NCBI GenBank assembly: GCA_029717555.1
Contig: JAMDHS010000001.1
Location: forward strand, 434,001-498,000
Reading direction: 5' to 3'
Length of the DNA: 64,000 bases
Origin: Peribolospora baueri
Lineage: Eukaryota
The position numbers were made by a program, and so were the translations under genes. Positions 5,012 to 6,642 of the stretch are shown here, piece by piece (the stretch's first letter is position 1; each line of letters starts with the position of its first letter). The notes beneath the pieces were generated by a model. That model worked only from the letters and a program-made list of their open reading frames with translations, ran no database searches and was not told where the DNA came from.

Positions 5012-5251
5012 TCAGTTCTTCCAGGGGTGGCCTGTATGTGATCCAGGTAGAGAGAGAAAAAAGCGTAAGAACCCTGGGCCGAGAGAGACAGAGGGAAGGA
5101 GAGAAAGAAAGAAAGAAAGAGACACACCGGGGGGGTAGTCGGTCTTGGGCTCAGAGTTCTGGGGGTTAGGCACAGCCGCGACAAACGTGGCGGGCACCAC
5201 CGTGACGGCGGCGAGGACGGTGGCGATGAAGAGAGTCAGGGAGAGCTTCAT
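5012..5251 (-). CDS. Small secreted peptide precursor A (47 aa after splicing)
   Basis: Exons 5128-5251 and 5012-5031 around a 96-nt pyrimidine-rich GTGTGT..CAG intron give MKLSLTLFIATVLAAVTVVPATFVAAVPNPQNSEPKTDYPPGHPWKN. Clear signal peptide; paralogous to the gene at 6396-6642. Confidence 0.8.
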   Translation of the reverse strand: MKLSLTLFIATVLAAVTVVPATFVAAVPNPQNSEPKTDYPPGVSLSFFLSLLPSVSLGPGFLRFFLSLPGSHTGHPWKN

Positions 5252-5529
5252 GACAGGACGGCGCTACGTGGTTGGGTTTGGGTACTTGACGAGACGAGGG
5301 AAGGGAAGGGGAAGAAAAGAAAAGGAAAAGGAAGGAAGGATGAAGATGGACGTGAGGAGGATGGATGGGATGAGCTTGGCACTCGGCGATGGCAGCAGGC
5401 ACCAGACAAACACGAAGGAAGACGAGAGACGGCGGCGGCAACTCACGAGGGGGTTCGTTCTGGGAAGTCGTGGATGGAACGAGGGGTCAAGAAAGAAAAG
5501 GGGAAGGGGAGGGAGGCAGGCAGACAAGG

Positions 5530-5535
5530 TATATA
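5530..5535 (-). promoter_or_regulatory. Candidate TATA box of peptide precursor A
   Basis: TATATA immediately followed on the minus strand by a CT-rich tract and a GTGAGT 5'-UTR intron donor at 5441-5446. Confidence 0.5.
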
Positions 5536-6045
5536 TCGGTCTACGTGTTATCTAGCCCCAGCCAGTGAAGCCTATGGTCGCCTGTCTCGCCCCCGCGGCC
5601 CCAGTTTTAGGTCGGTACAAGCCACTTCACTTCGACTCGAATCGAATGGGACGTGAGCCTTGTGTCGAAAGCCGATCGCATTCGGAGGGACGCCAAGTCA
5701 AGACGTGTGCCGCAGCCATCCCTTGCCGGGGAGGCGAGCAAGAAGAAGGCAACGATTAGAGAGGGGTAAAAGGAACCGTTTAAACGCTAGCCCAGACAGA
5801 TAAGCAGCGGCCGGGCCGATGGACATACAGACAAGACAGTACCACGCGTGACGGAAAGATAAGAGGAAAAGAGAAAAGGTAAAGGGTGCGTCGTCCGTTC
5901 GTTCGAAAATAGTCGCACGCATCGGGCATCGTGCCGTGGTCGGCGGGCCTACATGCTTAGTTACGTCGGCGCCGGCCTTTCTTCCCACCCCGCCTTGCTG
6001 CCTCCGTCGATCAAGTGACCATGCCGGCCGGCGGGCAGGCACGGC

Positions 6046-6070
6046 GTAGTGTAGTGTAGTGTAGTGTAGT
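6046..6070. repeat. (GTAGT)5 microsatellite
   Basis: Five perfect copies, downstream of peptide gene B. Confidence 0.9.
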
Positions 6071-6395
6071 GTGGTGCCACGTCCCTTTTCAATCATACCA
6101 CCCCGTCGCCGATCGTTATCGCAGACAAAGCAGGACAGGCGACTGTGAAAAGCCTCTGTACGGATATCCCGGTGTTGGAACGTGGTTAATATACAGTACA
6201 AGGCAGTGAAAGGCCCGGCCGACCTATCCATCCGCACCATGGACGTAGCAGCGAGCGATGGGAGACCGAGGGAAGAGGGAAAGCGAAGGAAAAGAGAGGC
6301 GAGCGCGGCAGGCGAGCAAGCTCGTGGACGGGCTCAGTGGCGCGGGCGACGGAAGAAAAGGGGAGGTGCCGCCCACGCACGGTGGGCTGCTCGGC

Positions 6396-6642
6396 TCACT
6401 TCCAGCTCGGGCCTGGGGGGGAGAGAGGGAGACAGAGGCATGGAGTCAGATGGCGGCGGAGGACGGCAGGCAGGGCAGGGATAGGAGGCGAGGGGAGGAG
6501 GGACGTCGACGAAGAGACGCGCATACGCACCATCGATGAAGTCCTGCTTGGGCTCGTCGGGCGTCGGGACAGCAGACGCGACAGGCACGGCGGCGAGGGC
6601 GGCGAAGACGGCGAGAAGGATAGCGGCGACCTGGAACTTCAT
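6396..6642 (-). CDS. Small secreted peptide precursor B (42 aa after splicing)
   Basis: Exons 6531-6642 and 6396-6412 around a 118-nt GTGCGT..CTGAC..CAG intron give MKFQVAAILLAVFAALAAVPVASAVPTPDEPKQDFIDGPSWK. Signal peptide present; same phase-1 intron inside the Gly codon as precursor A. Confidence 0.82.

Follow-up and report, generated by a model that had tools for sequence, protein, structure and literature searches.

What do two very short open reading frames (ORFs), lying in tandem between housekeeping genes of the fungus Peribolospora baueri, encode? We examined this question in a 64,000-nucleotide (nt) stretch of contig JAMDHS010000001.1 (positions 434,001 to 498,000), which we call the window and whose numbering we use throughout. 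The two ORFs occupy positions 5012-6642 of the minus strand; gene A starts with the ATG at 5251, and gene B with the ATG at 6642. A preliminary description of this DNA had proposed that splicing converts them into paralogous precursors of 47 and 42 amino acids (aa) and that the pair forms a peptide-signalling system resembling Qsp1 of Cryptococcus neoformans. From the sequence, we conclude that the products of the pair, 42 and 47 residues long, are very probably precursors from which small peptides are secreted. Sequence analysis within this one genome gives good support to the view that such precursors are encoded here in tandem and are under selection. The suggested likeness to Qsp1 signalling is an analogy, and two features of the Qsp1 family are missing from the pair.

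The gene structures were read as follows. The first coding exon of gene A is 124 nt long (5128-5251) and ends in phase 1. It is followed by a 96-nt intron (5032-5127, GTGTGT...ACAG) with GT and AG ends, and by a second coding exon (5012-5031) that completes a Gly codon, adds HPWKN and stops at 5014-5012. Gene B has a first coding exon of 112 nt (6531-6642), again ending in phase 1, a 118-nt intron with GT and AG ends (6413-6530, GTGCGT...CTGAC...CCAG) in which CTGAC is a branch-like motif, and a second coding exon (6396-6412) that completes a Gly codon, adds PSWK and stops at 6398-6396. Joining the exons by these coordinates gave a 47-aa product with a tail ending in WKN for gene A and a 42-aa product with a tail ending in WK for gene B. 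Both coding sequence (CDS) introns are in phase 1, and both split the Gly codon into G and GC. The two spliced products share a signal-peptide-like start, the motif AVPxP, the core EPKxD[YF]xxG and the tail GxxWK. To place the introns in context, we predicted introns in 13 neighbouring genes supported by Pfam, using a crude codon-score path search with donors limited to GTNNG[TC], for which some calls are surely wrong. The 37 predicted introns had a median length of 100 nt (58-250), and their donors included GTGAGT (19), GTGCGT (6), GTGAGC (6) and GTGTGT (1). The CDS intron of gene B is thus ordinary for this genome, both in its length and in its GTGCGT donor, which is tied with GTGAGC as the second commonest.

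We compared the two genes at the protein and DNA levels. The BLOSUM62 local alignment of the whole products scored 74 against 22.9 +/- 4.6 for shuffled sequences, a z of about 11 that none of 5000 shuffles reached. After removal of the predicted signal peptides the score was 46 against 20.6 +/- 4.4 (2 of 5000 shuffles reached it), and the signal parts alone were less similar, with 92 of 5000 shuffles reaching their score. In a six-frame translation of the whole window, EPKxD[YF] was found only in genes A and B. At the DNA level, local alignment was significant for coding exon 1 alone (z 4.4; 1 of 500 shuffles). The CDS introns gave a faint CT-rich match (z 2.9; 6 of 500 shuffles), the 3' flanks gave z 2.6 in a low-complexity stretch, and there was nothing in the part containing the promoter and 5' untranslated region (5'UTR; z 0.0) or in exon 2 with the following 40 nt (z 0.4). 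Exon 1 held co-linear repeats spaced 1382-1391 nt apart, the CDS intron and the 3' flank held weaker co-linear pairs, and no promoter motifs were shared between the two genes beyond chance. Since exon 1 alone shows significant similarity in its DNA, we take the duplication to be old, with the peptide and the intron position retained. That genes A and B are anciently duplicated paralogues is well supported by these comparisons. Thus, much of the preliminary description held up: its coordinates and translations were identical to ours, and the shared motif, the common phase-1 intron within the Gly codon, and the dissimilarity of introns and flanks (aside from the faint CT-rich match) were all recovered. 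Its proposal of selection on the peptide also gains support from a conserved peptide core set against diverged introns and flanks.

Coding potential was assessed with a codon log-odds table for which five ORFs of the window, all confidently coding, served as the training set. Exon 1 scored 0.53 (gene A) and 0.51 (gene B) per codon in frame, and the other five frames were negative or near zero (all negative for gene A). For comparison, coding windows scored 0.22 +/- 0.13, all 41-codon windows of positions 4400-8900 scored -0.18 +/- 0.20, and the windows that reached exon 1 of genes A and B amounted to fractions of 0.0001 and 0.0006 of 8756 (0.01% and 0.06%). The G+C content of third codon positions (GC3) in exon 1 was 0.88 for gene A and 0.84 for gene B, compared with 0.71 in the five training ORFs. 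Inside the CDS introns, GC3 fell to 0.56 and 0.69, and the log-odds fell to 0.19 and 0.05 per codon. We then scanned every ATG of the window for a signal-peptide-like start, defined by a basic residue, the absence of acidic residues from the first 20, a hydrophobic stretch of 12 residues and an open frame of 32 codons. Only three ORFs of the 64 kb passed: gene A, gene B and one with a negative coding score. The signal-peptide-like region of gene A comprises 26 residues including the start codon (5174-5251), with predicted cleavage between VAA and VP; that of gene B comprises 24 residues (6571-6642), with predicted cleavage between ASA and VP at a canonical AxA. Taken together, we are confident, on sequence grounds, that genes A and B are real spliced genes, and we consider it likely that their products are secreted.

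Each gene also has a similar arrangement upstream, consisting of a TATA-like element, then a lone GTGAGT some 200 nt upstream of the ATG, and an acceptor that precedes the ATG by 3-13 nt. In gene A, the TATA-like element of the putative promoter (5530-5536) lies about 85 nt upstream of the sole GTGAGT in the 219 nt preceding the ATG, and the putative 5'UTR intron (183 nt, 5264-5446, GTGAGT...CGTAG) has an acceptor AG that ends 13 nt before the ATG. In gene B, the putative promoter element is at 6963-6968, and the putative 5'UTR intron (198 nt, 6651-6848, GTGAGT...CTAAC...CACAG) has a single GTGAGT donor, a CTAAC branch-like motif at 6662 and an acceptor 9 nt before the ATG, with an alternative acceptor AG at 6645. 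From these elements we infer that each gene carries a 5'UTR intron of roughly 190 nt and its own TATA-like promoter. A scan for bacterial promoters and terminators is uninformative for a fungus. Rfam over positions 4000-9000 gave only one 15-bit chance match, and on the lack of any family in that scan we rejected the idea that the locus is a snoRNA host gene.

The DNA around the pair has several features of low complexity. Long purine-rich (GA) tracts lie on the plus strand at 4700-5130, 5290-5340, 6260-6300, 6420-6510 and 6680-6930, and as a result the promoters, UTRs and introns of both genes are 69-78% pyrimidine on the transcribed strand. Between genes A and B sits a short microsatellite of the pentanucleotide GTAGT/GTGTA (6046-6075, plus strand), and an imperfect CTGTTG/CTGTCG hexanucleotide array (7208-7249, plus strand) lies upstream of the gene B promoter region. 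About 34 uninterrupted T residues (4403-4436 of the plus strand, poly-A on the minus strand) occupy the convergent intergenic stretch that separates the end of the eIF2-beta gene from gene A, some 580 nt past the gene A stop.

What kind of peptides would such precursors yield? Neither product contains Cys, a dibasic (KR or RR) Kex2-type site or an internal repeat; their net charges are 0 and -2, and they contain 6 and 4 prolines. Because of these properties, models of a cationic antimicrobial peptide, a Cys-knot peptide or a Kex2-processed repeat protein do not fit, and the lack of Cys agrees with the earlier statement that there is no CAAX box. Precursors this short are too short for co-translational targeting by the signal recognition particle and reach the endoplasmic reticulum post-translationally. 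We would therefore expect the 42- and 47-residue precursors to enter the endoplasmic reticulum after translation. Signal peptidase would then cut at the predicted sites, releasing Cys-free, Pro-rich, non-cationic peptides of 21 residues (gene A) and 18 residues (gene B). Val-Pro and other X-Pro N-terminal dipeptides are of the type removed by Ste13/DPP-IV-type aminopeptidases. Such an enzyme could strip Val-Pro and then X-Pro, leaving 17- and 14-residue peptides built on the core EPKxD[YF]xxGxxWK, which would diffuse and exert a biological activity extracellularly. After this trimming, the N-terminus of the gene A peptide would be Gln, which could cyclise. A single-exon pyroglutamyl peptidase gene (28254-28919, plus strand; Peptidase_C15, E 1.4e-68) lies 22 kb from the pair; members of this family are cytosolic, and the proximity is probably a coincidence.

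The length of the active form differs from what had been suggested before. Signals of about ten residues would require cleavage on the C-terminal side of the one Lys in EPK, and neither product offers a dibasic site, so that the proposed 10-mers are not supported. Because the residues conserved between the paralogues span nearly the whole mature peptide, we expect the active form to be a 14-21-mer. Removal of a C-terminal Lys by a Kex1-type enzyme had also been invoked. Kex1 is specific for C-terminal Lys or Arg, and gene A ends in Asn; such trimming could therefore apply only to gene B.

We next consider what lies around the pair. Pfam identified genes for ATP synthase gamma, eIF2-beta (PF01873), an ADA2-like protein with Myb, TADA2A-like and SWIRM domains, and Fis1, in agreement with the eIF2-beta and ADA2 flanks named previously. 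Farther away in the window are genes for a DEAD-box helicase, a folate trifunctional enzyme, ribosomal protein SA, MetRS, the pyroglutamyl peptidase, an acyl-CoA-synthetase-like protein, an arrestin-domain protein, a major facilitator superfamily transporter and a ubiquitin hydrolase. The arrestin-domain protein is encoded by a 966-codon open frame (37818-40715, minus strand) that specifies both an arrestin N and an arrestin C domain, followed by a long Ser/Pro/Gly tail of low complexity in which nine His stand in a row. The helicase ORF (14607-16298, plus strand) has best named relatives that are only 31-41% identical and nearly all from Ustilaginomycotina, among them Thecaphora, Sporisorium, Ustilago, Testicularia, Pseudozyma, Violaceomyces and Tilletiaria. 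Because of these matches at 31-41% identity, the genome appears to be Ustilaginomycotina-like, with no close relative in the protein collection, from which the helicase of this window is itself absent.

Searches for relatives of the peptides themselves returned none. The unspliced ORF of gene A shared words with 6 candidate proteins, 0 of them at E <= 10, and residues 1-40 of gene B gave no candidate among proteins of 30-55 aa. A two-sequence profile of exon 1 had 0 matches at E <= 0.001 among 1,835,955,588 representatives, and the exon-1 profile gave 273 pattern matches on metagenome contigs, 0 of which were confirmed. A degenerate DNA pattern (EPKxD[YF]xxG plus the donor) matched metagenomes 28 times, and in 0 of the 28 did the translations upstream of the match have a signal-peptide-like ORF with AVPxP. 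The ESM Atlas gave no usable match to exon 1 of gene A, and Pfam found nothing near its cut-off for the peptide ORFs, the best being DUF4148 with 11-14 bits against a cut-off of 27. All of these external searches were made with exon 1 or the unspliced ORFs, so that the GxxWK tail lay outside every query, and the collections hold almost no fungal DNA. Because fungal DNA is scarce there, because tiny intron-split genes are rarely called, and because the queries were limited in this way, the blank searches weigh little. Based on these sequence data, we regard genes A and B as an orphan peptide family.

The explanation that best accounts for the observations is that genes A and B are real, anciently duplicated genes for secretory pre-propeptides that act as a self- or kin-directed signal, although we hold this full account with somewhat less than even confidence. 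In this account, the signal would be made in vegetative growth and would be Qsp1-like in its working without being homologous. Codon bias above that of housekeeping genes, together with the housekeeping neighbourhood, suggests abundant vegetative expression, and on the same grounds we favour a signal directed at self or kin over an effector directed at a host. The signalling part, taken separately, is an argument from analogy, and we advance it tentatively, as a rather doubtful proposal. Several observations weigh against this account. Secretion, dipeptidyl trimming and signalling activity are all steps that we infer, and the signal peptides and cleavage sites come from simple rules (a basic-then-hydrophobic filter and the -3/-1 rule applied by eye). 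The argument from conservation is drawn from one paralogue pair in one genome, and no homologue appeared in any of the collections searched, which contain little fungal DNA. The window holds 133 ORFs of 150 aa or more, and in this set we found no gene for an OPT transporter, a subtilase or another processing protease, nor a regulator gene. The regions upstream of the two genes are free of ATG for 430 and 620 nt, and this depletion is weak given base composition (shuffle fractions 0.13 and 0.16). Finally, the CDS intron of gene A is ordinary in length and has a rare donor, GTGTGT, found in 1 of the 37 predicted neighbour introns. It is also in frame and free of stops if retained, so that a 79-residue unspliced product could be made, and a 60-residue product made through an upstream CAG acceptor is possible.

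Could the peptides instead be small effectors directed at a plant host or at other microbes? Smut fungi such as Ustilago maydis carry tandem clusters of lineage-specific secreted effectors, and the pair resembles these in being tandem paralogues with signal-peptide-like starts, with no homologues found elsewhere, in a genome whose helicase is nearest to those of smut fungi and allied Ustilaginomycotina. The pair differs in that its products are several-fold smaller than typical effectors, in its position between housekeeping genes and in its very high codon bias, which are unlike typical effector clusters induced in planta. A variant of this idea is that gene A mimics the plant DY-peptides of the RGF and PSY families, as RaxX is a microbial mimic of plant PSY. 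Mimicry of this kind would sit poorly with fungi, in which we know of no Tyr sulfation. Plant RGF1-3 are 13-mers according to Table 1 of PMC11534595. The last ten residues of gene A are reminiscent of them, being Pro/His-rich, with DY at the beginning, H-P further on and K-N at a free C-terminus, a likeness recognized post hoc. Compared with the peptides of that table, the gene A tail is 10 residues instead of 13, and gene B has DF in place of DY, ends in K and lacks the terminal Asn, so that what the two paralogues have kept in common is not the set of residues by which RGF or PSY peptides are defined. By eye, neither product has the features of the RGF/GLV or PSY families (DY, about 13 residues, Pro-rich, ending in HN or NN, or a PSY core). 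We therefore judge effectors of some kind to be unlikely, and hormone mimicry by gene A to be hardly credible.

A second alternative is a strict Qsp1-type quorum system, in which an extracellular cut would release a peptide of about ten residues ending at or near Trp, for import by an OPT transporter and action on intracellular transcription factors. To our knowledge, no fungal peptide autoinducer other than Qsp1 and the mating pheromones has been studied well. Its active peptide is the extreme C-terminus of the precursor and ends in Trp. In the preliminary description Qsp1 was a similarly small signal-peptide precursor with a C-terminal peptide; the secreted pro-peptide agrees with the literature. 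Published accounts describe an 11-residue peptide that leaves the cell as a pro-peptide, undergoes extracellular maturation by Pqp1 and is imported by Opt1 (PMC7537855, PMC6571750, PMC9426920). The pair shares with Qsp1 a basidiomycete origin, a very small secreted precursor and a short Cys-free tail with Gly, Pro, an aromatic residue and Trp, making it a plausible functional analogue. In our filter scan both genes are small ORFs with an N-terminal secretion signal, their codon bias suggests abundant expression, and Qsp1 itself works in the manner outlined, according to the same accounts (PMC7537855, PMC6571750). The pair is unlike Qsp1 in consisting of two paralogues and not one gene, and the C-terminal Trp is absent: Trp is followed by Lys-Asn in gene A and by Lys in gene B. 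Alignment of the Qsp1 11-mer to gene A scored 23, a value reached by 207 of 5000 shuffles, and in gene B only the Trp aligned, with all 5000 of 5000 shuffles reaching the score. Before the 10-mers that this alternative needs, a single Lys is the only recognisable cleavage site, no OPT or protease gene lies nearby in the window, though linkage is not required, and the organism belongs to a subphylum other than that of Cryptococcus. The earlier assignment to a Qsp1-like system thus finds no significant sequence similarity behind it and no terminal Trp in either product. We consider a strict Qsp1 system distinctly unlikely; by analogy the pair may work like Qsp1, yet we do not assign it to the Qsp1 family.

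Other known peptide systems fit less closely. Precursors of the yeast alpha-factor type have a signal peptide and a pro-region, and the X-Pro or X-Ala dipeptides at their new N-terminus suit Ste13-type dipeptidyl aminopeptidases. Genes A and B are like these precursors and fungal Kex2-processed repeat proteins in such respects, and unlike them in having one core each, no repeats and no KR or RR, so that several cores between dibasic sites are found in neither product, and in a length of 42-47 aa against more than 100 aa. Basidiomycete lipopeptide pheromones of the Mfa type differ as well, since genes A and B have no CAAX box and no Cys and have signal-peptide-like starts. In fungal dikaritin-type precursors of ribosomally synthesized and post-translationally modified peptides, a signal peptide is combined with repeated cores carrying Kex2 sites, and DUF3328 (UstYa) or tyrosinase genes lie alongside. 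The pair has no repeats, and neither DUF3328 nor tyrosinase had a match among the 133 window ORFs of at least 150 aa.

A further alternative accepts the genes as real and assigns them other products, namely an unspliced 79-aa or alternatively spliced 60-aa protein from gene A and an unspliced 102-aa protein from gene B, which would make the shared tail irrelevant. The stop-free 96-nt intron of gene A with its rare donor class is consistent with this, and the unspliced ORFs of both genes are open. However, only splicing gives both products a GxxWK end at the same Gly codon in the same phase, the unspliced tails have nothing in common, and codon log-odds and GC3 both drop within the introns. We regard such products as very unlikely. 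That the ORFs are not functional protein-coding genes at all, being chance ORFs, decayed duplicates or non-coding transcripts, is just as improbable: the lack of a homologue or Pfam family and the shortness of both products would suit it, and it is contradicted by the protein similarity at z of about 11, the conserved intron position and phase, a top-ranking coding potential confined to the correct frame, and two ORFs left intact while the non-coding DNA diverged beyond alignment.

Genes as small as these routinely escape fungal annotation. The pair offers a clean, testable case, since both peptides are conserved, the splice junctions are defined and the simple locus could be removed by a single deletion. 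If the products are effectors or surface peptides, they would still represent a new orphan family and would show how paralogy and conservation of splice phase can by themselves find such genes. We give a low probability to the more specific idea that a Ustilaginomycotina-like fungus uses the two peptides as autoinducers that arose independently of Cryptococcus Qsp1 and report cell density or developmental state. If it is true, the pair would follow Qsp1 as the second known case of peptide quorum signalling in fungi, and it would be the first case in which a single locus supplies two related signals; if the peptides are signals, peptide quorum sensing in basidiomycetes would be broader than a single genus.

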